A stretch of 64,000 bases of DNA from Deltaproteobacteria bacterium. Lineage in GTDB: Bacteria; Desulfobacterota; Binatia; Binatales; Binataceae. The translations under genes were made by a program, and so were the position numbers. This document shows positions 22,624 to 35,294 of this stretch, in pieces. The stretch lies in the NCBI GenBank assembly GCA_021799495.1, contig JAJZAI010000002.1, forward strand, positions 7,157-71,156, in the 5' to 3' direction. Numbering within the stretch: position 1 is the stretch's first letter; each line of letters starts with the position of its first letter. Below the pieces are notes generated by a model, which was given only the letters and a program-made list of their open reading frames with translations, was not told the origin of the DNA and searched no databases.

Positions 22624-23640
22624 TCAGGCGCTGGCCGGCCAGCTTGCCGCGAGGTTATCGATCGCGGCGAGGATGCGTTTGCGTTTTTCCGTCGGGTCTT
22701 TCGCGTAAGACGTGAATTGCAGCGCCGCCGCGGTGATTCCGGATCGCTCGTAATCGCGCAGCCGGCGCGCGATCTTAGCGGGCGAGCCGAGTACGTAAAT
22801 CGCCTCGACCATGTGGTCGGGAATCGTCGTCAGGGCTTTTTTCCGGTCGCCGGCGAGCCATGCGTCGAGCGCGGCGCGCGCCTCGGCTTCATAGCCGATT
22901 TCACGGAAGAATTTGTTGTACTGCGGCACCGTGACGTAAGCGGTCAGCTCGCGGCGCAGTTGCTCGCGCACGGCCTCTTCCTCGGCGTCGATCGCGACCA
23001 TTATCCGGCATGCGATGTCGATGTTGTCGGTCGTTCGGCCGGCGGCCCGCGCCCCTTCGTAAATATGCTCGCGCATCGGGCCAAAGGTTTCCGGCGTGAT
23101 GTAGTTGACGATGGCGCCGTCGCCGATTTCGCCCGCCGTCCGCAGCATCAGGGCGCCCTGCGCGCCGATATAGATCGGCGGCGGCGGATCGCTCGCCGCG
23201 CCGAGTCGGAAGCCGTTGATCTGCACGGTCTTGCCGGCGACCGACACTTTTTCTCCGGTGAAGCATCGCCGCAGCGCGTCAACCGTCTCCTTGAGCCGGG
23301 TGATCGGCATCTTGTACGGCACGCCCATCCATTGCTCGACGATCGTCGGAGTCGAGATGCCGAGACCGAGGATGAATCGCCCACCCGAAAGCCGCTGCAA
23401 GGAAGCGGCGGAAAGCGCGATCAGCGCGGCCGGCCGGGTGAAGACCGGCACGATCGCGGTTCCGAGCCGCATCCGCTCGCTCACCATCGCGGCCGCGGCG
23501 ATCGGAGTAATCGCGTCGCCCGCGAAAGTTTCGTACGACCACGCGTCTTCATAGCCGGCGCGCTCGGCATGGCGCACAAGTTCGGCGAAGTGCTGGTTCT
23601 GAAAGCCTTCGAGCGGAATCGTTATTCCAAGTCGCATCAT
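22624..23640 (-). CDS. LLM-class (luciferase-like, probably F420/flavin-dependent) oxidoreductase
   Basis: The real start is ATGATG at 23640 (MMRLGITIPLEG...). The 338-aa TIM-barrel LLM-like sequence includes GRFILGLGIS. The upstream 279 codons of track ORF 22624..24477 are an Arg-rich artefact overlapping the neighbouring gene. Confidence 0.78.
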   Translation of the reverse strand: MMRLGITIPLEGFQNQHFAELVRHAERAGYEDAWSYETFAGDAITPIAAAAMVSERMRLGTAIVPVFTRPAALIALSAASLQRLSGGRFILGLGISTPTIVEQWMGVPYKMPITRLKETVDALRRCFTGEKVSVAGKTVQINGFRLGAASDPPPPIYIGAQGALMLRTAGEIGDGAIVNYITPETFGPMREHIYEGARAAGRTTDNIDIACRIMVAIDAEEEAVREQLRRELTAYVTVPQYNKFFREIGYEAEARAALDAWLAGDRKKALTTIPDHMVEAIYVLGSPAKIARRLRDYERSGITAAALQFTSYAKDPTEKRKRILAAIDNLAASWPASA

Positions 23641-23720
23641 GGGCGGACACTCTCTTTTCAAGCGGATGAGGAGAAATCTATATCGGGCGCGCCGCGCGAG
23701 CGCAAAGCCGCGCCGGAGCG

Positions 23721-26588
23721 CTATCGCTCCCGCGGCTTCGCGTTGAGCGCCTCCGCCAGATGGAGCGGCTCGCGGCCGGGGCAAAACTGGCGGATTTGCG
23801 CGCGGCAGGCGAAACCGTCGGCGATGACGATCGCGTCTTCCGGCGCTTGACGGATGGCGGGAAGCAGCACACGCTCGCCGATTTTGCGCGAGATCGCGAA
23901 GCGGGCCTCGCCATAGCCGAAAGCGCCGGCCATCCCGCAGCATCCCGCGTCCGGCGCGCTGACTTCGAGGCCGGGCGCCTTGCGCAGCAGCGCGAGTTCC
24001 GTATCGAGTCCCGCGAGCGCCTGGCGATGGCAATGGCCCTGCACGATCGCGCGGCCGGCCGGCGCGGTCGGCACGAAGCCGGGCGCCTCGCGCATCAGGA
24101 ACTCGTCCAAAGTCATCGCCGCTTCCGCGACCGCGCGCGCCGCGCTCAGGCGCGGAAAAAGCGCGGGGGCCTCGTCCCGAAAAGTAAAAATGCAGCTTGG
24201 TTCGAGGCCGACTATTTTGACGCCGCCCGCCGCCAGCGGCGCCAGCCTGTTGATTGAATCGAGCATCCTGTGGCGGGCGAGATCGAGCCGGCCTTGATCG
24301 TAAAGCGGGCGTCCGCAGCAGACGTCGCCGCGCGGCAGCGTGACGCGGAAGCCCGCGCGCTCCAGAACCTCGGTCGCCGCGATCGCCACGCGCGGCTCGA
24401 AAAAATTGTTGAACGTATCCGGAAACAGCACGACCGCCGGCGCGTCCGGATTGACCGCGCGGCGCCGCGCGAACCATCGGCGGAAACTCGCCGGCGCGAG
24501 CCGCGGCAGCGCGCGGTCCGGATGGACGCCGAGGAGGGTTTTGGCGATTGAACCCGCCCCGCCGGAGAGCATCGCGTTGTAAAGCCGCGGCGCGACGGCG
24601 CCGATCCGCGCGAGGTCGTGAATCCGCCCGAAGATCCGCGCGGCGAGCGGCGGGCGATGCGTGCGATAGTAGTTAGCCATGAACTCGGCCTTGTACTTCG
24701 ACATATCGACCGACGCCGGGCATTCGGTTTTGCAGGCCTTGCAGGAGAGGCACAATTCGAGCGATTCGTAGAGCGCGTCGTCGGCGAAGCCGCCGGGCAG
24801 CACGCCGCCGGCGAGAGCGTCGAAGAGCAGCCGCGCGCGGCCGCGCGTCGAGTACGCCTCGTCGCGCGTCGCCATGTATGACGGACACATCGCGCCGGCG
24901 TCGGTCTTGCGGCATTTTCCAATCCCGACGCATTTGAGCGCGGCGCCCGCGAGCCCGCCCTCCGGCGAAAAATCGAAATAGGTGTTCACCGCGCGCGGCG
25001 CGTATCGCGGCCCGAGGCGCAGGTGCGAGTCGAGCGGATCGGGATCGACGATCACGCCGGGATTCATGCGATGGTCCGGGTCGAAGATGCGCTTGAAGTC
25101 GCGGAACGCGCCGATCAGCTCCGCGCCGTACATTTTGGGCAGCAACTCCGAGCGCGCCAGGCCGTCGCCGTGCTCGCCGGAGAGCGAACCGCCGAATTCC
25201 ACGACCAAATCGCCGATTTCCTCCATCGCCGCGCGAAACGTCGCGATACCCGCGCGCGTCGCCAGGTCGAAGTTGATCCGGCAATGGACGCATCCTTCGC
25301 CGAAGTGGCCGTAATAGGTGGCGGCGGTGAGCCCATGACCGTTGAGCAGCTTGACGAAGCGGCGCAGAAAATCGCCGAGCCGCGCCGGCGGCACGGCGCA
25401 ATCCTCGGCGCCCGGCCAGGTGCGCGGACGGCCGGGAACATAGGCGCCCGCGCCCAGCCCCGATTCGCGCAAGCGCCAGACCGCCAGTTGATCGGCGCGA
25501 TCGAACAGCGCCGCGACTCCCGTGCAGGCGCCAGTTTTGCGCGCCTCGGCGATCAGCGCATCGACGCGGACGCGCAGTTCGTCGTCGCATTCGGCGCCAA
25601 TCTCGACGAGCAGAAAGGCGCGGCCTTCGGGCAGAAGACGCACCGCGGCGACGCCCTTCGCCCGCGCGATATCCGGCAGATGATGATCGAAACCTTCGAG
25701 CGCCTGCGGCCGATGCGCGAGCATCCACGCCATCTGATCGGCCGCCAGATAAACGTCGGCGAAGCCGAGCGTCACCAGCGCAAGACGGCGCGGAATCGGC
25801 ACGAGCCGCACGACGGCCTGATGGAAAATCGCGAGCGTGCCTTCGGAGCCGACGGCCGCGCTGGCGAGATTGAAGCCGCGTTCGGGCAGCAGGTCGTCGA
25901 GGTTGTAGCCGGAGACCCGGCGCGGAATTTTCGGATAGCCGGCGCGAATCGCGTTGGCGTGGCGATCGGCGAGCGCGCGCAACGAATTGAAAATTCCGCC
26001 GGCGCGACCCCCGCTGGCAATCGCGGCGGCGATATCGCTCGCGCTCGCCGCGGCGCCGAGGCTCAGTTCCGTGCCGTCGTAGAGCATCGTTTCGAGCGCA
26101 ACGACGTTGTCGGCGGTTTTGCCGTGCGCGGCGGAATGGGCGCCGCAGGAGTTGTTGCCGATCATCCCGCCGATCGTGCAGCGGTCTTTGGTTGACGGAT
26201 CGGGCGCGAAGAACAGTCCGTGGCGTTCGGCGGCGGCGTTCAGATGCGACTGGACGACGCCGGGTTCGACGACCGCGACGCGGCGATCGGGGTCGATCGA
26301 GCGGATTTCCGTCATGTAGCGCGAAAAATCGATCATCAACGCGGTGTTGGCGCCCTGGCCGGCCAGCGACGTGCCGCCGCCGCGCGGCACGACCGGCAGA
26401 TCGTTCTCTCTCGCGATTTTAAGCGTCGCGGCGACGTCGGCGGCGCCGCGCGGAGCGATTACGCCGATCGGATCGCGCCGGTAGTTCGAGGCGTCGGTCG
26501 AGAAGATAACGCGCGCGGCCGCGTCGAAACGCACGTCGCCCCTGATCGTCCGCGCCAGTTCATCGCGGATTGCGGATTTCGATGCCAT
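23721..26588 (-). CDS. FAD-linked oxidase fused to Fe-S/CCG domains (YdiJ / GlcD-GlcF-fusion type)
   Basis: 955 aa with an N-terminal FAD-binding PCMH-type domain (VVPRGGGTSLAGQ), a ferredoxin-like cluster motif (CLSCKACKTECP) and a C-terminal Cys-rich (CCG-like) region. Confidence 0.85.
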   Translation of the reverse strand: MASKSAIRDELARTIRGDVRFDAAARVIFSTDASNYRRDPIGVIAPRGAADVAATLKIARENDLPVVPRGGGTSLAGQGANTALMIDFSRYMTEIRSIDPDRRVAVVEPGVVQSHLNAAAERHGLFFAPDPSTKDRCTIGGMIGNNSCGAHSAAHGKTADNVVALETMLYDGTELSLGAAASASDIAAAIASGGRAGGIFNSLRALADRHANAIRAGYPKIPRRVSGYNLDDLLPERGFNLASAAVGSEGTLAIFHQAVVRLVPIPRRLALVTLGFADVYLAADQMAWMLAHRPQALEGFDHHLPDIARAKGVAAVRLLPEGRAFLLVEIGAECDDELRVRVDALIAEARKTGACTGVAALFDRADQLAVWRLRESGLGAGAYVPGRPRTWPGAEDCAVPPARLGDFLRRFVKLLNGHGLTAATYYGHFGEGCVHCRINFDLATRAGIATFRAAMEEIGDLVVEFGGSLSGEHGDGLARSELLPKMYGAELIGAFRDFKRIFDPDHRMNPGVIVDPDPLDSHLRLGPRYAPRAVNTYFDFSPEGGLAGAALKCVGIGKCRKTDAGAMCPSYMATRDEAYSTRGRARLLFDALAGGVLPGGFADDALYESLELCLSCKACKTECPASVDMSKYKAEFMANYYRTHRPPLAARIFGRIHDLARIGAVAPRLYNAMLSGGAGSIAKTLLGVHPDRALPRLAPASFRRWFARRRAVNPDAPAVVLFPDTFNNFFEPRVAIAATEVLERAGFRVTLPRGDVCCGRPLYDQGRLDLARHRMLDSINRLAPLAAGGVKIVGLEPSCIFTFRDEAPALFPRLSAARAVAEAAMTLDEFLMREAPGFVPTAPAGRAIVQGHCHRQALAGLDTELALLRKAPGLEVSAPDAGCCGMAGAFGYGEARFAISRKIGERVLLPAIRQAPEDAIVIADGFACRAQIRQFCPGREPLHLAEALNAKPRER

Positions 26589-26641
26589 CGCCGCGAATCA
26601 TTCTAACCGATCGTGAGGCGCGGCTATCAAGCGCGGCGCGC

Positions 26642-27052
26642 TCAGGGAAAATGCCGCTCGATATAGCCGAGCGCGCTTTCCAGGTCCGGCAGAATCTTGG
26701 TGCAGAACCGCGCCATCCACGGCGAGCATTCTTGGAAACTGAAAGGACTGAATGCGATCACGAACTTGCCCAGGTCGTGGCTCGCATAAAACACTTCCAT
26801 CGCGGTGCCCAGCGACGGCTTGCAGTAATTCACCAGCAGCAGATCCGCGTCGCGCACGTCCTGCAGATCGAACTCGACGATTTCGTTGGCCGAATCGATT
26901 TCGCGATCGCGGAAATTCCGGCGCAGCGGATCGAGCAGGATGAAGCGGCCGGCCAGGCGCTCCTTGGCCCGCGTGCGCCAATCCTTGGCCGCGTCCGCTT
27001 CGGCGTCCATAATCGGGCCGCAGAGATAGATGGTGCGGATCGAGTTCGCCAT
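26642..27052 (-). CDS. Nucleoside 2-deoxyribosyltransferase-like protein
   Basis: The ATG at 27052 (MANSIRTIYLCGPI...) lies within track ORF 26642..27292. YLCGP and SLGTAMEVFYA resemble the NDT-family YLAGP / GTAFEIGYA motifs (from memory). Confidence 0.55.
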   Translation of the reverse strand: MANSIRTIYLCGPIMDAEADAAKDWRTRAKERLAGRFILLDPLRRNFRDREIDSANEIVEFDLQDVRDADLLLVNYCKPSLGTAMEVFYASHDLGKFVIAFSPFSFQECSPWMARFCTKILPDLESALGYIERHFP

Positions 27053-27155
27053 GACCGCGCACGATAGCATACGCGCGTTCCGGCCGCGGAGAATTGCGTG
27101 CGTTTGAATCCCGCGATGCGCTATTGTGCGGGCTTTGCGTGACGGAGGTTTTACG

Positions 27156-27911
27156 ATGAAGAGGCTCGAAGGCAGGGTTGCGATCGTGACCGGCGCCGGT
27201 TCGGGCATTGGCCGCGCATCCGCGCTGCTGTTCGCCGCCGAAGGCGCGAAAATCGTCCACTGCGATATTTCCGAAGGCGGAGTCGAAGGCACGCAGGCGC
27301 TGCTCTCCGCGGGCGGTCACGAGAGCGCCGGCATCGCCGCCGATATCGCGGACGAGGCGACCGCGTTCCGGCTGGTCGAAACCGCGGTGGAGAAATTCGG
27401 CAAGCTCACGACGCTGATGAACAACGCCGGCGTCGGCAGCAACGCGCTCACCGCCGAGATGGCGATCGAGGAGTGGGACCGCGTGCACAATATCAACGTG
27501 CGCGCCCAATTCCTGCTGATCCGCGCCGCGCTTCCGGCGATGATCCAGGCGGGCGGCGGCAGCATCGTCAACGTCGCCTCCGTGATGGCCGAGGCGACCG
27601 ACTACGGCCTCGCTCCCTATTGCTCGTCGAAGGCCGGCGTCGCCGGGCTGACCCGCACCGTCGCGCTCGAATACGGCAAGCACGGCATCCGCGCCAACTA
27701 CATCATGCCCGGCCCGATTTACACGGGCCTGACCCGCGCCAACTTCGACCGCGAGCACATTCGCGCCGTATGGGAAAAGAAGACCGCGCTGCGGCGCCTC
27801 GGCCAGCCCGAGGACATGGCGAAAGTGGCGCTGTTTCTGGCGTCGTCCGACGCCGACTACGTTACCGGCGCCGGAATCCGCGCTGACGGCGGCCTGATGC
27901 TGCGCGCGTGA
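27156..27911 (+). CDS. SDR-family oxidoreductase
   Basis: The ATG at 27156 follows GGAGG (27144..27148). It has VAIVTGAGSGIGRA, NNAG and YCSSKAG (YxxxK). Confidence 0.85.
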   Translation: MKRLEGRVAIVTGAGSGIGRASALLFAAEGAKIVHCDISEGGVEGTQALLSAGGHESAGIAADIADEATAFRLVETAVEKFGKLTTLMNNAGVGSNALTAEMAIEEWDRVHNINVRAQFLLIRAALPAMIQAGGGSIVNVASVMAEATDYGLAPYCSSKAGVAGLTRTVALEYGKHGIRANYIMPGPIYTGLTRANFDREHIRAVWEKKTALRRLGQPEDMAKVALFLASSDADYVTGAGIRADGGLMLRA

Positions 27912-28031
27912 GCCCGTCCGGCGGGCCGCGCGCGGGATAGTGGAGCGCGGAGCGAAGGATGCTATTAGAATGGTAATGATGAGGAATGAAGCCGGACCTG
28001 CCTCAGGCCGCGATCGAAGGAGAGTTTCATC

Positions 28032-29264
28032 ATGAAACAATCGCCAGTTTTCATCCTGGGCGGCGCGCAGAGCGATTTCGCGCGCAACTGGGCGCGCGAG
28101 GGCAAGCATTTTTCCAGCGTGATGAACGAGGCGCTGATCGGCGCGCTCGAAGCGGCCAAAATCGAACCGCGCGAGGTGCAGACCGCGCACGTCGGCAACT
28201 TCGCGGCGGAACTTTACGCCAAGCAGGGCCAGGTCGGCGCCTTCGTGCTCGAAGCCGATCCCGTCCTCTCGGGAATCGCCACCAGCCGCCATGAGGCGGC
28301 CTGCGCGTCCGGCTCGATCGCGATTCTGGCCGCGTCGGCGGAGATCGAGGCGGGCCGCTACGACCTCGCCGCCGCGGTCGGCCTGGAGCAGATGAAGACG
28401 GTCGATACCGTCACCGGCGGCGACTTTCTCGGCACCGCGGGATGGTACGAGCGCGAATGCAAAGGCAAGGATTATCCCTTCCCGCGCCTGTTCGGCCGCC
28501 TCGGCGACGAATACGACAAGCGCTACGGTCTCAGGGAGGAGCATCTCACGCGGATTTCCGAAATCAATTTCGCCAACGCCCGGCTCAATCCGCTCGCGCA
28601 GACCCGCAGTTGGATTATGAACAAGGAAGACGAGCAGCAGCAGGCGAAATTCAACCAGCGCATCGCCGGCCGCATCCGCGTGCGCGATTGTTCGCAGGTC
28701 ACCGACGGCGCCGCGGTGGTGATGCTCGCGTCGGAGAAGTACGCCGCCGAATGGGCCAAACGCAACGGCAGGAAACTCGACGACGTGCCGCGCATCCAGG
28801 GTTGGGGCCATCATACCGCGCCGCTTGAATTCGACGCGAAAATCGCCGAGAGCCGCGACCATCCCTACGTTCTGCCGCATACGCGCCAGGCCATCCTCGA
28901 CGCCTTCGCGCGCGCCGGCGTCGGCGGCGTGAACGAGCTTTCGGGAATCGAGACCCACGATTGTTTCACCACCTCCGAATACATGGCGATCGACCACTTC
29001 GGCATCACCGCGCCCGGCGAATCGTGGAAAGCGGTCGAAGACGGCGCGATCGAACTCGGCGGGCGCATCCCGATGAATCCGAGCGGCGGCCTGATCGGCG
29101 CGGGCCATCCGGTCGGCGCGACCGGCGTGCGCCAGATGCTTGACGCGTGGCGCCAGGTGACGGGCAACGCCGGCGACTATCAGGTCAAGGGCGCGAAACG
29201 CTTCGCCGTGCTGAATATCGGCGGCAGCGGCACCACCAGTTGCGCCTTCGTGGTCGGCCGCTGA
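28032..29264 (+). CDS. Thiolase-fold protein (SCP-x / lipid-transfer-type acetyl-CoA acyltransferase-like)
   Basis: 410 aa with the nucleophile context HEAACASGS, THDCF and C-terminal NIGGSGTT. Confidence 0.8.
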   Translation: MKQSPVFILGGAQSDFARNWAREGKHFSSVMNEALIGALEAAKIEPREVQTAHVGNFAAELYAKQGQVGAFVLEADPVLSGIATSRHEAACASGSIAILAASAEIEAGRYDLAAAVGLEQMKTVDTVTGGDFLGTAGWYERECKGKDYPFPRLFGRLGDEYDKRYGLREEHLTRISEINFANARLNPLAQTRSWIMNKEDEQQQAKFNQRIAGRIRVRDCSQVTDGAAVVMLASEKYAAEWAKRNGRKLDDVPRIQGWGHHTAPLEFDAKIAESRDHPYVLPHTRQAILDAFARAGVGGVNELSGIETHDCFTTSEYMAIDHFGITAPGESWKAVEDGAIELGGRIPMNPSGGLIGAGHPVGATGVRQMLDAWRQVTGNAGDYQVKGAKRFAVLNIGGSGTTSCAFVVGR

Positions 29265-29332
29265 TTGGCCGCGCGGGCGGGCCGAGGCGCTTCGCCCGCG
29301 CGCTTGACGGATAGGGGGTCACGATAGGCGCG

Positions 29333-30931
29333 ATGAAGCCCTCGGCCTTGCCGCGAATCGCTCTGCGCGATCAGCATGGACGCGACTGGACGCCGCCGTC
29401 CGGGCGCGACGCGCTGCTCTGCTTCGTGCATGACGGCTGTCCGACCTGCGACCTCACGCTCCCGATCCTCGAACGGCTCTATCGCCATTTCGGCGGCGCG
29501 CTCGATATCGCCGCGATCGGGCAGGAGGCCGCGGGCAACGCCGCGCTGCTCAAACGCCATCGGCTGACCCTGCCGATGCTCGATGACAGCGCGCTCAAGC
29601 TTTCGTTCGCGGCGGAAATCGAAATCGTTCCGACCGTGATTCTGGCCGCGGCGGACGGAACGATCGTGCGCCGCTTCGAGGGCTTCGATCGCGGCGACTG
29701 GCGCGACCTCGTTGCGCATCTTGTGGTGCGCACCGCCGTCGCCGCGCCGGAAATCGATTGGGACGAATTTCCCGAGACGCGCCCCGGATGCGGTTCGCGC
29801 TCGGTCGAGCCGGAAATCGCGGAACGCCTTGCCGCCGAGGCTGCGGGCCGCCGCATGGGCGCGCGGCGGATCGCGCTCGGCGCGGCGCAGGATCCGTTCG
29901 AGTTCATGTTCGAGCAGGGGCTGACCGACGGCCTGCCGGTGATTCCGCCTACGCCCGAGCGGGTCGCGGCGATGCTCGCCGGCACGCGGCGCGATCCGCT
30001 CGAAGTCGTGGCGATCGTTCCGCCGAACCTTGCGCCGGCGACGGTCGAAAAAGTCGCCGCGAACGCGGTGATGGCCGGATGCCGTCCCGAATATCTGCCG
30101 GTCGTGCTCGCCGCGCTCGAAGCCGCCTGCACCGACTCCTTCAACGCCCACGGAATCATGGCGACCACCGCGGGCGCGACGCCGATTATGGTCGTCAACG
30201 GCCCGATTCGTCGGCGGCTCGGAATGAACATGGGGATGCAGGCGCTCGGCTCGGGCTTTCGGCCGAACGCCACCATCGGCCGCGCGCTCAAGCTGGCGCT
30301 GCGCAATATCGGCGGCGCCCGCCCCGGCGAAATCGAACGCTCCACGCTCGGCGCGGCCGGCAAGTTCACGATGTGCGTCGCGGAATGGGAGGAGCGCAGC
30401 CCATGGGAGCCGCTCCACGTCGAACGCGGCTTCGCGCGCGGCGAAAGCGTGGTCACGCTCTTCGGCCTTGAGGCCGGGTCGCATCAGATGAGCGACCATA
30501 CCGCCCGCACCGCGCGCGCGCTCGGCGGCAGCCTCGGTGCCTTCCTCGCCGCCGCGACGCATCCCAGGGCCTACCGCCTCGGCGAGGTGCTGCTGGTGAT
30601 CTCACCCGAGCACGCCGACACTTTTGCGCGCGACAAATGGAGCAAGGCGCAAATCCGCGAGCGCATCCTCGAGGTCAGCGCGCGCCGCGCTCGCGACCTG
30701 CTGCCCGGTCCGGAAATCGGCGAGGGGATGTCGCCCGCGATGCTCGGCCTCGGCGCTTCGCCCGGAGCCGCCGAGCTTGACGCGCTGGTAATGAAGTTCC
30801 GCAAGCCCGAAAATATTGCGATGATCGTCGCCGGCGGCGAAGCCGGCAAATTCACGGCGGTGTTCGGCGGATGGTTTGGCGGGCCGGCCGGCTCGATGAG
30901 CGTCAGCCGCCGTATCGAGGAGGTTCCATGA
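29333..30931 (+). CDS. Thioredoxin-fold (CPTC) domain fused to a ~380-aa uncharacterized domain
   Basis: 532 aa. The N-terminal ~130 aa are redoxin-like (LLCFVHDGCPTCDL ... IVPTVIL). The remainder (GLTDGLPVIPPTPERV ... ) matched no family I recognise. The stop overlaps the next start (ATGA at 30928..30931). Confidence 0.7.
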   Translation: MKPSALPRIALRDQHGRDWTPPSGRDALLCFVHDGCPTCDLTLPILERLYRHFGGALDIAAIGQEAAGNAALLKRHRLTLPMLDDSALKLSFAAEIEIVPTVILAAADGTIVRRFEGFDRGDWRDLVAHLVVRTAVAAPEIDWDEFPETRPGCGSRSVEPEIAERLAAEAAGRRMGARRIALGAAQDPFEFMFEQGLTDGLPVIPPTPERVAAMLAGTRRDPLEVVAIVPPNLAPATVEKVAANAVMAGCRPEYLPVVLAALEAACTDSFNAHGIMATTAGATPIMVVNGPIRRRLGMNMGMQALGSGFRPNATIGRALKLALRNIGGARPGEIERSTLGAAGKFTMCVAEWEERSPWEPLHVERGFARGESVVTLFGLEAGSHQMSDHTARTARALGGSLGAFLAAATHPRAYRLGEVLLVISPEHADTFARDKWSKAQIRERILEVSARRARDLLPGPEIGEGMSPAMLGLGASPGAAELDALVMKFRKPENIAMIVAGGEAGKFTAVFGGWFGGPAGSMSVSRRIEEVP

Positions 30932-31464
30932 GCGCATTCGAAATTGTCGATCCCACGGCGGAGCTCGCGCCCGTCCGCCGCACGCTCGCGCGCCGCCCCG
31001 CGGCGCTGCGCGGCCGCGTCGCGCTGCTTGATATCCGCAAGCCGCGCGGCGACGTGCTGCTCGACCGGCTGGCGGCGCGCCTGGCTGAACGGCTGCCGGG
31101 CGTCGAGGTCAAGCGCTTCAGCAAGCCGACTTTCGCCAAGCCCGCGCCCGAAGACCTGCGCAAGCGGATCGCCGAGGAGAGCGATTGCGTAATCGAAGCC
31201 CTCGCCGATTGAGGGTCGTGCACAACGTGCAGTGTGCACGATTCAGTATGGTTTGAAATAAATTCGCGGCCCGCGGTGGTCGTCGCCTCGACCGGCTTCG
31301 TCGATGCGGCGGCGCGGCAGGCCGAGGCGCTTGGATTGCCGGAACTGAAGCGCGTCTTCGTGCCGCATCCGATTCAGGACGCGAACGACGACGAGATGCG
31401 CGCGAAGGCCGACGCGATCGTCGATCAGGTGATCGCGGCGCTGACCGCGCGCGACGAGGCCTAG
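30928..31464 (+). CDS. Selenoprotein, UGSC-family-like (in-frame UGA = Sec at codon 95; motif U-G-S-C-T-T-C)
   Basis: The ATG at 30928 follows GAGGAGG. Track ORFs 30871..31212 and 31234..31464 are in the same frame and are separated only by the TGA at 31210..31212. A SECIS-like hairpin starts 4 nt after the TGA. The read-through product is 178 aa. Confidence 0.8.
31216..31241 (+). promoter_or_regulatory. Candidate bacterial SECIS hairpin
   Basis: The sequence tcGTGCAcaacGTGCAgtGTGCAcga can form a 9-bp stem (tcgtgcaca/tgtgcacga) with an 8-nt loop. Alternatively it can form a cgtgc/gcacg stem with an AGUGU apical loop about 20 nt after the UGA. Confidence 0.55.
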
Positions 31465-31532: not shown

Positions 31533-32276
31533 ATGAGGCCTGCTGAAAACTCGCGACCGGCCGCTTTCGGCGCGATCATCTTTTTTCTCGCCGTCGCCGT
31601 GCTTTGGGGAATCGGCGAGCGCGGACTCGCCTTTGCGATTTTAGCGATCGGCGCGATCGTCGCTCTGAAACGCCGGGTGCGCTGGCGCCGCGTCCATAAC
31701 GCGGCGCGCGCCGACGCGATGATCGCCGTCACGCGCGAGGTTCTCGCCAAAATCGAATCCGACCGCCGCCTGCCGTCGCTTCTGTCGGCCAATCTGGTCC
31801 TGCGCGAACACGAATTCGTTCTGCTCAAGGAAGCGCGCAGCCGCGCGTTCGGCCTGCGCCTTGACGCCGCGCCTCCGCCCTCGATGCCGTATATGCGGTT
31901 CGCCGGCTTTTCGATTTACGACGATCTCGGCCGGCGCGCCGGCCGCGCGGGGGGACGCAACTCCGCCGTGGGCGAGCTTTACCTGACCAACCGCCGGCTT
32001 GTCTTTATTGGTCCGCGCGCGAACCTGGAGATCGCCCTGGAAAATACGCTGACCATCGATCCCGTGCTCGATTCCTTCCGCGTCGTTGTGACGGGAGCGG
32101 AAAATCCCTATCACTTTACGGCGGAAAATCCGTTGCTGTGGGGGTTGATGATGAAATGGATGTCCGCGAAGCCGTCGGCTTCGCCAGACTTGCCGAATGG
32201 AACGACGATCCGGCTGTCTGGAGACGGAAGCGGAACCCTGCGCAACCTGACGATCTCGCTGACCATCCCGGAATAG
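31533..32276 (+). CDS. Hypothetical membrane protein with C-terminal PH/GRAM-like region
   Basis: 247 aa with two N-terminal TM helices (AAFGAIIFFLAVAVLWGI, LAFAILAIGAIVAL). ELYLTNRRLVFIG resembles bacterial PH-like domains. Confidence 0.5.
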   Translation: MRPAENSRPAAFGAIIFFLAVAVLWGIGERGLAFAILAIGAIVALKRRVRWRRVHNAARADAMIAVTREVLAKIESDRRLPSLLSANLVLREHEFVLLKEARSRAFGLRLDAAPPPSMPYMRFAGFSIYDDLGRRAGRAGGRNSAVGELYLTNRRLVFIGPRANLEIALENTLTIDPVLDSFRVVVTGAENPYHFTAENPLLWGLMMKWMSAKPSASPDLPNGTTIRLSGDGSGTLRNLTISLTIPE

Positions 32277-32360: not shown

Positions 32361-33464
32361 ATGGAATTCCGCGACTACTACAAGCTGCTCGGCGTCGAAC
32401 GCACGGCGTCGGCCGATGAAGTCAAACGCGCCTATCGCAAACTCGCCCGCAAGTTCCATCCGGACGTAAATCCCAACAATAAAGAGGCCGAGCGCCGCTT
32501 CAAGGAGATCAACGAGGCCTACCAGGTCCTCGGCGATGCCGACAAGCGCAAGAAGTACGACGAGCTCGGCGCCGATTGGGAGCGCGGCGCGTCGGAGGAA
32601 GAGGTCTATCGGCGTTATGCGCGCGCGGGCGGCGCCGAGGGCCATCCGTTCACGGGCGGCGACGCCGGCGGTTTCAGCGACTTCTTCGAGCGTTTCTTCG
32701 GCGGACTGGGCGCTGGCGGCGGTCGCGTGCGCGGTTTTTCCCGCGGTTTCGGCGACGCGGAGGGGGTCGGCGTGCATCACGGCGGACGCGCTCCCGATCT
32801 GCAGGCCGAAGTCGAAATTCCGCTCCGCGACGCGGTGCATGGCAGCCAGCGCCGGATCAATCTGACCGCGACCGACGAATGCGACAATTGCGGCGGATCG
32901 GGCGTAATCGCGCGGCAGGAAAAGCGCGGCAACGCGCGCATTATCCGCTCCGCCGATGAATGTCCGAAATGCGGCGGCGCGGGCGTGGTCCGCGCCTATC
33001 GGCAACTGGAGGTTACGATTCCGGCCGGGATGACCGACGGCTCGCGAATCCGTCTCAAAGGGCAGGGCGGCAAAGGCGCCAGGCCCGAACTCAACGGCGA
33101 TCTGTTCCTGACCATTCGATTGAAACCGTCGAACGTTTTCAGCGTCTCCGGCCGCGATCTCCGCTGCCAGCTTCCGGTGTGGGATTACGAAGCCGCGCTG
33201 GGCGCCGAAGTCACCGCGCCGGCTGTCGAAGGCAAAATCGCGCTGAAGATTCCGGCCGGCAGCCAGAGCGGCCGGGTGATGCGGCTGAAGGGGCGCGGCA
33301 TTCCCGGCCGCGGCAAGGAAGCGGCCGGCGATCTGCTCTACGAACTCAAAGTGCTTGCTCCGACCGACATGAGCGCCGACGAGCGCCGCCTGATGGAGCA
33401 GTTTGCCGAACGCCGCCGTTCGCGCGACGTGCCCGATCCGCGGGCCGACCTGATGCGGGAGTGA
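32361..33464 (+). CDS. DnaJ/CbpA-class J-domain co-chaperone (reduced zinc finger)
   Basis: 367 aa with a J domain (DYYKLLGV...KFHPDVN) and a Gly/Phe-rich linker. Only two CxxCxGxG motifs are present ([16 protein letters not shown]), followed by C-terminal substrate-binding domains. Confidence 0.85.
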
Positions 33465-33469
33465 CGGCG

Positions 33470-33760
33470 ATGGCGCGACGCGCGAATCGCTCAAGCCGCG
33501 CCGCCGGTCGGCGCGAGGTGGTCCTGCTCAGCCGCGCGGCGTTGTTGGTGATGTCGGGCGCGAGCGAGCGCGAACTCGCGGCATGGGAGCGCGAGGAGTT
33601 GATCGCGCCGGTCGAGCACGCTGGCGTCGGCGGCGAAACGCTTTACGATCGCGAGACGCTGCGGCGCATCCGCGTGATTCGGACCCTGGCCGACGAGTTG
33701 GAGGTCAACCTGCCCGGAATCGGCGTGATCCTGAACCTGCTCGACCAATTCGACGGGTGA
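33470..33760 (+). CDS. MerR-like / CbpM-HspR-like chaperone-associated regulator
   Basis: The ATG at 33470 lies within track ORF 32960..33760, 5 nt after the dnaJ-like stop. The 96-aa product includes LRRIRVIRTLADELEVNLPGIGVILNLLDQ, which resembles CbpM/MerR C-terminal helices. Confidence 0.55.
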   Translation: MARRANRSSRAAGRREVVLLSRAALLVMSGASERELAAWEREELIAPVEHAGVGGETLYDRETLRRIRVIRTLADELEVNLPGIGVILNLLDQFDG

Positions 33761-33875
33761 CGCGGCGAACGCAGTTGGCGGGACCGCGCGGGGCGGCGTG
33801 GGCCGGCAAGAGCCGTCCTGTGGCGCCGAAAATCCATCCAACGGCCGGCGTGGCGATCGGCTATAATGAACATTG

Positions 33876-35294
33876 ATGGATACCCGGCTAACCACCGCCG
33901 TCGAGAACGCGGTCGTCTCCAGCCTCGAACGGACGGGCGTCGCGCCGGCCGCGCCGGTGATGGTCGCGCTGTCGGGCGGTCCCGACTCGGTCGCCCTTTT
34001 GTACGCGATGTGGCGGCTCAGGGGCGCCGCGGTACGCTCCGGGCCACTCTTTGCCGCGCATCTGAACCATCGGATGCGCCCTGGCGAGGCCGACCGCGAC
34101 GAGGCCTTCGTGCGTGGCTTGTGCGACCGGCTTGGAATTGAACTCGCGGTCGAACGGGCGCGCGGGCTGGACTCGGGAGGAAATCTCGAAGAGCGGGCGC
34201 GGGGTGTCCGGAGCGATTTTCTGACGCGCGCTGCCGAAGGCTTTGGCGCAAATTATATCGCTTTGGCGCATAATCGCGACGATCAGGCCGAAACGGTCCT
34301 GATGCGCCTGATGCGCGGCAGCGGCGTCGCCGGTCTGGCCGCGATCGCGCCGGCCGGACCGGGCGGAATCATCCGGCCGTTGTTGGACGTATCGCGTGGC
34401 CGGATTATGAAATACCTTGACGCGCTTGGGGCGGCTTACGTCACGGACAGCACGAATAGCGACCGGCGCTTCCTGCGCAACCGGATTCGGCATGAACTTA
34501 TTCCATATTTAGAACATGATTATGCGCAAGGTATCGGTCGGCGGCTGACGGCGATCGCGTCGGAGGCGCGCGCGCTCGATCAATTTCTGCGCACCACTGC
34601 GGAGGCGGAGTTGTATCGGCGGCTGGATCGATCAGGACGGCTGGCGACCGCCGGGTTTGACGCGCTGCCGCAAGCGCTCGCAAGCGCGCTGATCCGGCAA
34701 TGGCTGCGGATCGCGCTTGGCGATCTGCGGCGAGTAAATCGTTATCAAATTGAGCAAATCGTGAAGGTTTGCGCGGAAGGCCCGGCCGGTTCATCGATTG
34801 CGTTGCCGGGCGGACGGCAGGTGCGGCTCGATTACGGTTTCGCGACGGTCGCAGCGGCCGTGATCCATGACGCGCCGGCCTACGCGCATCCGCTGGCGGT
34901 TCCGGGCGCGACCGCGGCGCTGTCGGCAGGAGTTCGCTTCATTGCTCGATATGTATCAAAAAACGTTTTATCGCGAGCTTGTGGCGATGGCAAAGCTGCG
35001 CTCTCGCGAAATCGGGCGTGGTTTGACGCGGATGCGATCCATCGCGGTCTGAGCGTGCGGAACTTTAATGAAGGAGATCGGATTGCGCCGCTGGGCATGA
35101 CCGGAACGCGCAAAGTTCAAGACGTCTTCGTTGACCGCAAGACCTCGCGCGCACGCCGGGCGATGTGGCCGATGGTCGTCGCCGACGGCCAAATCGTATG
35201 GATTCCGGGGCTGGTTCGGAGCCGCTTTGGACTGGTTGATGCGGCCAGCCGGGAAGTTCTGGAGCTCGAAGCGCAACCGATCCGGAGCGTGTGA
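33876..35294 (+). CDS. tilS: tRNA(Ile)-lysidine synthase
   Basis: It has the PP-loop VALSGGPDSVALL, and its length and C-terminal domain are typical of TilS. The ATG at 33876 sits one codon inside the track TTG start. Confidence 0.85.
   Translation: MDTRLTTAVENAVVSSLERTGVAPAAPVMVALSGGPDSVALLYAMWRLRGAAVRSGPLFAAHLNHRMRPGEADRDEAFVRGLCDRLGIELAVERARGLDSGGNLEERARGVRSDFLTRAAEGFGANYIALAHNRDDQAETVLMRLMRGSGVAGLAAIAPAGPGGIIRPLLDVSRGRIMKYLDALGAAYVTDSTNSDRRFLRNRIRHELIPYLEHDYAQGIGRRLTAIASEARALDQFLRTTAEAELYRRLDRSGRLATAGFDALPQALASALIRQWLRIALGDLRRVNRYQIEQIVKVCAEGPAGSSIALPGGRQVRLDYGFATVAAAVIHDAPAYAHPLAVPGATAALSAGVRFIARYVSKNVLSRACGDGKAALSRNRAWFDADAIHRGLSVRNFNEGDRIAPLGMTGTRKVQDVFVDRKTSRARRAMWPMVVADGQIVWIPGLVRSRFGLVDAASREVLELEAQPIRSV

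Follow-up and report, generated by a model that had tools for sequence, protein, structure and literature searches.

Selenoprotein B of the glycine and D-proline reductases (GrdB, GrdF, GrdH and PrdB; PF07355) carries its selenocysteine (Sec, U) where a strand ends and a helix starts, and the glycine reductase (grd) operon also holds a thioredoxin-type reductant in the form of trxA and trxB. A further selenoprotein family, UGSC, has been known for about twenty years: it is the 'UGSC-containing protein' of the Sargasso and Global Ocean Sampling (GOS) selenoproteome papers (PMC2398784), is counted among the most abundant aquatic selenoprotein families, has been termed 'likely Trx-like' (thioredoxin-like), and is placed by a 2026 review among the selenoproteins with largely uncharacterised functions. 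Here we describe a UGSC gene and its partner gene in a stretch of 64,000 nucleotides (nt) from a Deltaproteobacteria bacterium of the Binataceae (Desulfobacterota, Binatia; assembly GCA_021799495.1, contig JAJZAI010000002.1, positions 7,157 to 71,156 of the forward strand), hereafter called the window. The partner encodes a protein of 532 amino acids (aa) in which a thioredoxin (Trx) domain is fused to a C-terminal domain of about 350-400 aa that we call BIGC, a working label coined in this analysis. We suggest, with a probability of roughly 0.6, that the two proteins form a two-component thiol/selenol relay reductase composed of the CxxC of the thioredoxin domain, the U-x-x-C of UGSC and a catalytic Cys of BIGC. 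The window selenoprotein itself is an ordinary full-length member of its family (NF041046/PF24696), with the U-G-S-C motif, the in-frame TGA and no difference at the protein level. We did not find described in the literature the near-constant partnership with BIGC, the flavodoxin-like fold of UGSC or its relationship to GrdB and PrdB.

The two genes overlap in an ATGA that is read directly in the sequence, and a GAGGAGG lies four bases 5' of the ATG. An earlier note, made from the letters of this DNA alone, had pointed out this overlap and had placed the two genes at the end of a four-gene module consisting of a short-chain dehydrogenase/reductase (SDR), a thiolase-fold protein, the thioredoxin fusion and the selenoprotein. 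All four open reading frames (ORFs) are real, with coordinates as it gave them (Table 1); they are co-directional, with successive intergenic gaps of 120, 68 and -4 nt. The conserved unit proved to be smaller. One genome per species was scanned for relatives of UGSC, and the 80 loci retained (Binatia, Chloroflexota [Dehalococcoidia, Tepidiformaceae], Gammaproteobacteria [Pseudomonadales, Azotimanducaceae, OM182], one alphaproteobacterium and one myxococcote) were analysed by tblastn with the window proteins, by assumption-free clustering of ORFs and by distance-binned densities. According to tblastn, 70 of the 80 loci have a Trx-BIGC gene as the immediate upstream neighbour of UGSC, in the same orientation, and de novo clustering returned Trx-BIGC as the only conserved neighbour. 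Short or negative spacing between BIGC and UGSC is common in the other loci as well. The same picture is obtained from the BIGC side: all four sampled genes for stand-alone BIGC have a TGA-containing UGSC gene adjoining or one gene away, and a stand-alone BIGC of Methylomirabilota overlaps with UGSC in the same way as in the window.

In a number of genomes the two are a single protein. Among the best 150 BIGC representatives, BIGC stands alone in 85, follows a thioredoxin domain in 29, is duplicated in 12, and is fused to UGSC in 24, in both orders (UGSC-BIGC 15, BIGC-UGSC 9); PF24696 was also matched in 25 of 48 BIGC members picked for extra sequence. Many of the BIGC fusions begin or end precisely at the U position, and two of them were checked in the DNA: in one (L092) the sequence ...CALAD-TGA-GSCTTC stands behind the BIGC domain, and in the other (L093) ...GVGD-TGA-GSCTSW...MPHPLGG continues into it. 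Different domains precede BIGC: a thioredoxin with CPTC, CETC or CPTS, or a domain like FtrB with CPC/CHC, as in P0176, where a ferredoxin:thioredoxin-reductase-beta-like domain (CPC...CHC, aa 8-94; match to NF041072, the FtrB double-selenoprotein, below the cut-off) takes the place of the thioredoxin. BIGC and UGSC are therefore coupled, as neighbouring genes in several phyla and as fusions with either one first, and the electron-input domain before BIGC is interchangeable (Trx CxxC, Trx CxxS or FtrB-like). We consider it very probable that the two window genes constitute one functional unit. Fusion of UGSC to a domain termed 'Unknown_1' had been noted in the 2008 GOS paper; this is probably BIGC.

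Several further arrangements of these domains were seen. The UGSC-BIGC fusion of L093 (586-2654) is located directly downstream of radical-SAM/PDZ, B12-binding-domain and AMP-binding acyl-CoA synthetase-type genes and upstream of a DUF6282 gene. Tandem duplications of BIGC within one polypeptide of about 710-740 aa occur in P0157, P0177, P0184, P0188, P0255 and P0261, and in L088 and L091 a second unannotated gene of ~340-350 aa beside UGSC may be a BIGC paralogue.

The SDR and the thiolase do not share this conservation. In the earlier note the set was loosely likened, as a hypothesis, to glycine/proline reductase, with the thiolase in the position of protein C, and the comparison of UGSC neighbourhoods that it proposed shows conserved co-occurrence for the thioredoxin fusion and not for thiolase and SDR. 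A common pathway would fit the co-directional arrangement, the short gaps, with no terminator predicted between the genes, and the identical gene order in a relative with 88% identity (L081), and acyl-CoA genes do occur near other pairs (thiolase and DUF35 in L086, CoA-transferase in L087, SDR in L088-90); acyl-CoA dehydrogenase is in fact the next commonest neighbour (28 of 81 loci), followed by TauD (15), SDR (14), MFS (14) and family-III CoA-transferase (13), none of them at a fixed position. However, a thiolase is found within 10 kb of UGSC in just 4 of the 80 loci, all of Binatia type, at -5.8 to -10 kb and never adjacent, SDR matches occur at varying positions on either strand, and neither gene changes in density as the distance to the pair grows. 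In Binataceae the thiolase lies three genes away, and the unrelated genes that separate it from the pair include a PhzF-like and a Kelch lipoprotein gene. The four-gene order in L081, the one relative in which SDR and thiolase adjoin the pair, reflects recent common ancestry, because unrelated upstream genes (luciferase-like monooxygenase, FAD oxidase and deoxyribosyltransferase) are syntenic with the window there too; the downstream genes differ. Also, the taxa concerned carry many acyl-CoA paralogues as background. Conserved four-gene synteny is thus ruled out by tblastn, ORF clustering and flat distance densities alike, a single four-gene pathway is very unlikely, and SDR and thiolase are therefore recent neighbours of the pair and bystanders to Trx-BIGC and UGSC, most simply explained as a separate pair of beta-oxidation type. 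The acyl-CoA flavour of the nearby genes is loose and lineage-bound, and we do not trust it as a clue to the substrate. The thiolase passes an equivalog cut-off (NF004936) and is an ordinary PRK06289-type enzyme; this classifies the neighbour and does not place it in the unit. Membership of the membrane protein encoded downstream, which the note had thought possible, is likewise ruled out: relatives of this protein, for which no Pfam or NCBIfam family was matched, were present in 0 of 80 loci and were absent from the locus of the closest relative too. The boundaries of the window module are corrected by these results to two genes instead of four or five.

The upstream protein of the pair was correctly recognised as a thioredoxin fusion, a match which is weak in sequence and clear in structure. 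Only the first ~120 of the 532 residues match known families (ResA, E 7.5e-5; PDB ResA, E 1.7e-4), and the Redoxin score of 16.9 bits is below the Pfam gathering threshold of 26.6; many homologues do carry PF00578 or PF08534. The AlphaFold2 (AF2) model (predicted local distance difference test, pLDDT, 79 overall, ~90 in the thioredoxin part and 53-62 in the linker) is composed of a ResA-like thioredoxin fold, a floppy linker and a large alpha/beta C-terminal domain, and Foldseek of this model retrieves ResA with E 2e-9 and a target TM (template modelling) score of about 0.8. The N-terminal 130 aa share their fold and the position of the CxxC with TlpA, ResA and StoA (Redoxin, AhpC-TSA); unlike these, the window protein has no visible signal peptide or membrane anchor and is joined to the large BIGC domain. 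Both cysteines of the CPTC (C36 and C39) are invariant among 60 homologues, as is the linker motif R-P-G-C153-G-S (aa 150-155; window 29780-29800). The latter accompanies the thioredoxin-bearing forms of BIGC as [RK]PGC, including architectures whose thioredoxin has CxxS only. The 532-aa protein has over 7000 homologues, and those that carry an annotation are called peroxiredoxin, TlpA or redoxin, because the N-terminal quarter alone was matched; the label thus covers a quarter of the protein.

BIGC itself is a large family. A search with a BIGC profile returned 6225 clusters (50% identity), with 1870 below 1e-30, and the family names found were all 'hypothetical protein'. No match to BIGC was seen in Pfam at E<=10 (window copy and 48 diverse members), in NCBIfam, or among PDB sequences with either a single-sequence query or a 40-sequence profile. 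Over 40 stand-alone members the invariant positions are the D of TDGLP, two prolines, A-G-C250 in NAVMAGCxPEY, the G of NGP, R-x-N (RAN), the G-R of IGRA, one E of AExE and the G of AGG. The domain thus has one family-invariant Cys, C250, located in a charged pocket together with invariant Asp, Arg and Glu, and C348 is an additional conserved Cys.

With U read as C, the downstream protein exceeds the cut-offs of both family models, scoring 159.8 bits against 125 with NF041046 and 165.1 bits against 25 with PF24696 (residues 5-173 of 178), which bears out the selenoprotein with U-x-x-C-x-x-C of the earlier note. Its key residues are Sec95, Cys98 and Cys101 (U-G-S-C-T-T-C), together with a VPHPIQD motif. 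For a Cys homologue of 55% identity, AF2 predicts with a pLDDT of 90 a flavodoxin-like alpha/beta domain of five strands, in which U/C stands where a helix begins, and Foldseek of the UGSC model against PDB gave generic matches only (TM score 0.4-0.5). A thioredoxin fold for UGSC is ruled out by the AF2 model and by hhalign against a thioredoxin profile (1.3%).

A relationship is suggested instead to selenoprotein B. The sequences of GrdB read ...VILTST-U-GTCTRCGATMVKEIERAGIPVV...AIPHPLGNP... and that of the window UGSC reads ...VIEALAD-U-GSCTTCSVHDSVWFEINSRPAVV...FVPHPIQD..., so that U-G-T-C-T-R-C...PHPLG of GrdB stands against U-G-S-C-T-T-C...PHPIQ. In general form, GrdB/PrdB and UGSC share U-G-[ST]-C-T-x-C followed, at similar spacing, by a (G/R)-(I/P)-P-x-V strand and PHP(L/I)(G/Q), and the Sec occupies the strand end/helix start in both. 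The UGSC domains of BIGC fusions carry CGSCT[SA]W and (V/I)PHP(L/V)GG. In hhalign the probability for UGSC against GrdB/PrdB was 49% with narrow profiles and 94% with broad profiles (E 1.4e-7, 85 columns, U on U), and 90.5% against the GrdB of a canonical trxB-trxA-grdE-grdA-grdB-grdC-grdD operon, of which residues 340-425 were aligned. Controls were in the range of 0.1-2.7% (reversed GrdB 2.7%, thioredoxin 1.3%, BIGC 0.4%, maximum of 20 column shuffles 1.9%). We conclude that the Sec-bearing half of UGSC is remotely homologous to the Sec domain of GrdB/PrdB. In this respect the analogy with glycine/proline reductase, drawn by the earlier note from the component list, is better founded than the letters alone could show: the selenoprotein half of it holds, and the thiolase does not belong to the module. 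One presumed PrdB, P0331 (L083:7001-7723; 240 aa, PF07355), was rejected: it is phage-borne, its GRDB domain has lost both the Sec and the Cys position (motif TSTGGTGTRAG), and its gene, present on many contigs, lies within a phage-like tail/lysis module (Gp58, collagen-like, CHAP).

The TGA at position 95 is kept in frame in 80 of 80 UGSC loci from at least five phylum-level groups, between EALAD and GSCTTCS[VL]HD, which, judged from the sequences, is far beyond chance. Many database homologues of UGSC end precisely at ...EALAD, the signature of a miscalled selenoprotein. An ordinary stop codon, with 30928..31212 and 31234..31464 as two small genes or a pseudogene, would agree with the division of the UGSC gene into two products by public gene callers; yet both flanks of the conserved TGA share one frame, full-length homologues with Cys exist (P0123, P0124), the matches to curated selenoprotein models run through the TGA and a hairpin lies 3' of the UGA, all of which makes this explanation extremely improbable. 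The predicted hairpin may represent a bacterial selenocysteine insertion sequence (SECIS), taken here as a stem-loop just 3' of the UGA whose apical loop is ~16-37 nt downstream and contains G/U. Its 6-bp helix, with a GUG/GUU loop, is located ~19 nt 3' of the UGA and has all six pairs formed in 65 distinct sequences; the changes seen in it (21 G-C to G-U, 1 A-U) preserve pairing. This covariation is weak evidence, because the bases also encode invariant residues and the changes fall on synonymous sites. A scan of the window with Rfam gave no match, hairpin included, a tRNA scan found no tRNA-Sec, and the window showed no sel genes. Within 24 nt after the UGA (window 31217-31240) there are three copies of the hexamer GTGCAC/GTGCAG, so that two mutually exclusive hairpins are possible, with a 12-bp outer or a 6-bp inner stem; the inner stem is the sole one of the two retained across phyla.

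For the proposed relay we infer which way the electrons flow, that Cys250 of BIGC is catalytic and that the chemistry is that of a reductase. The model follows the logic of thioredoxin-dependent Cys reductases and that of the PrdB/GrdB U-x-x-C. The first gene would provide a cytoplasmic TlpA/ResA-like thioredoxin domain (CPTC) joined to BIGC, and a small substrate would be bound and activated at the invariant Cys and in the charged pocket of BIGC. The UGSC selenolate could then attack the enzyme-bound intermediate, or a BIGC sulfur adduct, after which a Se-S bond would form inside the U-x-x-C. This bond would be reduced by the CxxC of the fused thioredoxin, possibly via linker Cys153, and cellular thioredoxin reductase/NADPH would recharge the thioredoxin domain last. 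The Trx-fused or Trx-dependent Cys reductases (MsrA/B-Trx, ArsC, PAPS reductase) follow a common logic of catalytic Cys, resolving thiol or selenol and built-in thioredoxin; in contrast to them, the present system has its resolving module in a separate GrdB-like selenoprotein, and there is no sequence relation.

A number of observations weigh against the relay. BIGC is missing from the 10 kb around UGSC in nine of the 80 loci and lies 8 kb off in one further locus (L047), so BIGC-UGSC adjacency is not obligatory. When the complete 532-aa model was compared with PDB and BFVD by Foldseek, the 50 matches listed were all to thioredoxins. The homology of UGSC to GrdB spans only about 85 columns, and the Pfam GRDB model at E<=10 gave no match in three UGSC proteins; as the N-terminal ~230 aa of GrdB are absent too (178 aa in UGSC against ~436 aa in GrdB or ~240 aa in PrdB), UGSC is a distant minimal relative and not a member of the GrdB family. 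Finally, the third Cys of U-x-x-C-x-x-C is replaced by Trp in many fused UGSC forms, which means that the triad is not a family-wide requirement.

This replacement bears equally on another function, in which UGSC would handle a metal, a metalloid or selenium, its U-x-x-C-x-x-C(-x-x-H) would ligate Zn, Fe-S, Hg, As or Se, and BIGC would act as recipient or be the protein that is matured. Three chalcogen ligands spaced as in a metal or cluster site, with an invariant H-D behind them, would be well suited to such a role, as would the conserved C250 and C348 of BIGC. It is nevertheless weakened because the third Cys is Trp in so many relatives (CGSCTSW, for example), and the domains swapped before BIGC are disulfide reductases (Trx, FtrB), not metallochaperones. 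The Sec motif of GrdB/PrdB is, moreover, associated with redox catalysis. We hold a metal-handling role to be unlikely.

The likeness of UGSC to GrdB and PrdB also raises the question of a pyruvoyl enzyme: BIGC could be a self-processing proenzyme cut at A-G/C, and the pair a counterpart of PrdA/PrdB or GrdE/GrdB that breaks a C-N bond in an amino-type substrate. Self-cleavage typically takes place at Gly-Ser or Gly-Cys, and BIGC has an invariant Gly-Cys. Both GrdB and PrdB function with Cys-derived pyruvoyl subunits (PMC11229817). However, hhalign of BIGC against GrdE gave 0.1%, PF09338 was not matched in BIGC, the AGC lies between two helices of the AF2 model and not in a beta-turn, and no maturation factor is found among the conserved neighbours, which leaves self-processing quite improbable. 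In fact BIGC is unrelated to any of the partners: values against GrdE, the GrdB N-terminus, GrdC, GrdD, TrxA and TrxB were all <1% (<=0.6% for GrdE, GrdC and GrdD), and grdA, grdE/prdA and grdC/grdD are neither among the window ORFs nor among the conserved neighbours of UGSC.

By these results an orphan selenoprotein becomes a defined two-component system, with a near-constant partner domain whose thousands of clusters are at present mislabelled 'peroxiredoxin' or 'TlpA', a Sec domain like that of GrdB/PrdB and unlike thioredoxin, and a swappable Trx/FtrB input. They also suggest that selenoprotein-B-type chemistry extends beyond anaerobic amino-acid fermenters. A bolder proposal, possible and still on the doubtful side, is that BIGC and UGSC are a widespread counterpart, in largely aerobic bacteria, of Stickland-type selenoprotein-B reductases and form a new enzyme family, in which a GrdB-like selenol, recharged by the built-in thioredoxin, would reductively cleave a carbon-heteroatom bond of a BIGC-held substrate. 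Its hosts would be Binatia, SAR202/Dehalococcoidia and OM182/Pseudomonadales. Unlike Stickland fermenters, the UGSC hosts (Binatia, SAR202-type Chloroflexota and marine Gammaproteobacteria) are mostly aerobic. Such a counterpart, if real, would explain the abundance of UGSC in ocean and freshwater metagenomes.

Table 1. Features of the Trx-BIGC/UGSC pair and of the genes beside it, in window coordinates
Feature	Position	Strand	Details
Thioredoxin-BIGC fusion gene, 532 aa	29333..30931	+	upstream member of the pair
Thioredoxin-fold domain, aa 1-131	29333..29725	+	TlpA/ResA-like, C36-P-T-C39
Linker, aa 132-186	29726..29890	+	R-P-G-C153-G-S; Cys codon 29789..29791; low-confidence part of the model
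BIGC domain, aa ~187-532	29891..30931	+	alpha/beta; C250 codon 30080..30082
Coupling junction	30917..30931	+	GAGGAGG 30917-30923; UGSC ATG at 30928; ATGA overlap with the BIGC stop, 30928-30931
UGSC-family selenoprotein gene, 178 aa	30928..31464	+	read through the in-frame TGA
In-frame TGA, Sec95	31210..31212	+	motif ALAD-U-GSCTTCSVHD
SECIS-type hairpin (predicted)	31213..31244	+	12-bp stem, 8-nt loop, starts at the base after UGA
Conserved hairpin core	31226..31240	+	6-bp helix CGUGCA/UGCACG, GUG loop
SDR gene	27126/27156..27911	+	PF13561, 209 bits; neighbour, outside the conserved unit
PRK06289-type thiolase gene	28032..29264	+	NF004936, 617 bits vs cut-off 375; neighbour, outside the conserved unit
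Gene for a protein with two transmembrane segments	31533..32276	+	no Pfam/NCBIfam match; outside the unit

The UGSC loci that lack a nearby BIGC are L009, L012, L013, L016, L018, L020, L043, L046 and L061 (Tepidiformaceae/Dehalococcoidia), and in L012 the gene is located just upstream of secA. On the minus strand of the window, divergent from the SDR gene, 22624-27067 contains genes for a luciferase-like monooxygenase, a 955-aa FAD-oxidase/Fe-S fusion of GlcD-GlcF type and a nucleoside 2-deoxyribosyltransferase-like protein. On the plus strand, 32361-35294 contains a DnaJ/CbpA-like gene (32361..33464), a MerR-type CbpM-like ORF and then tilS (33873..35294), none of which is at the matching place in the closest relative. 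An antisense ORF of 836 aa (26598-29108, minus strand) spans the SDR and thiolase genes, and comparable long shadow ORFs lie opposite BIGC; these long antisense ORFs are artefacts of high G+C and cluster in related loci only as mirrors of the genuine genes.

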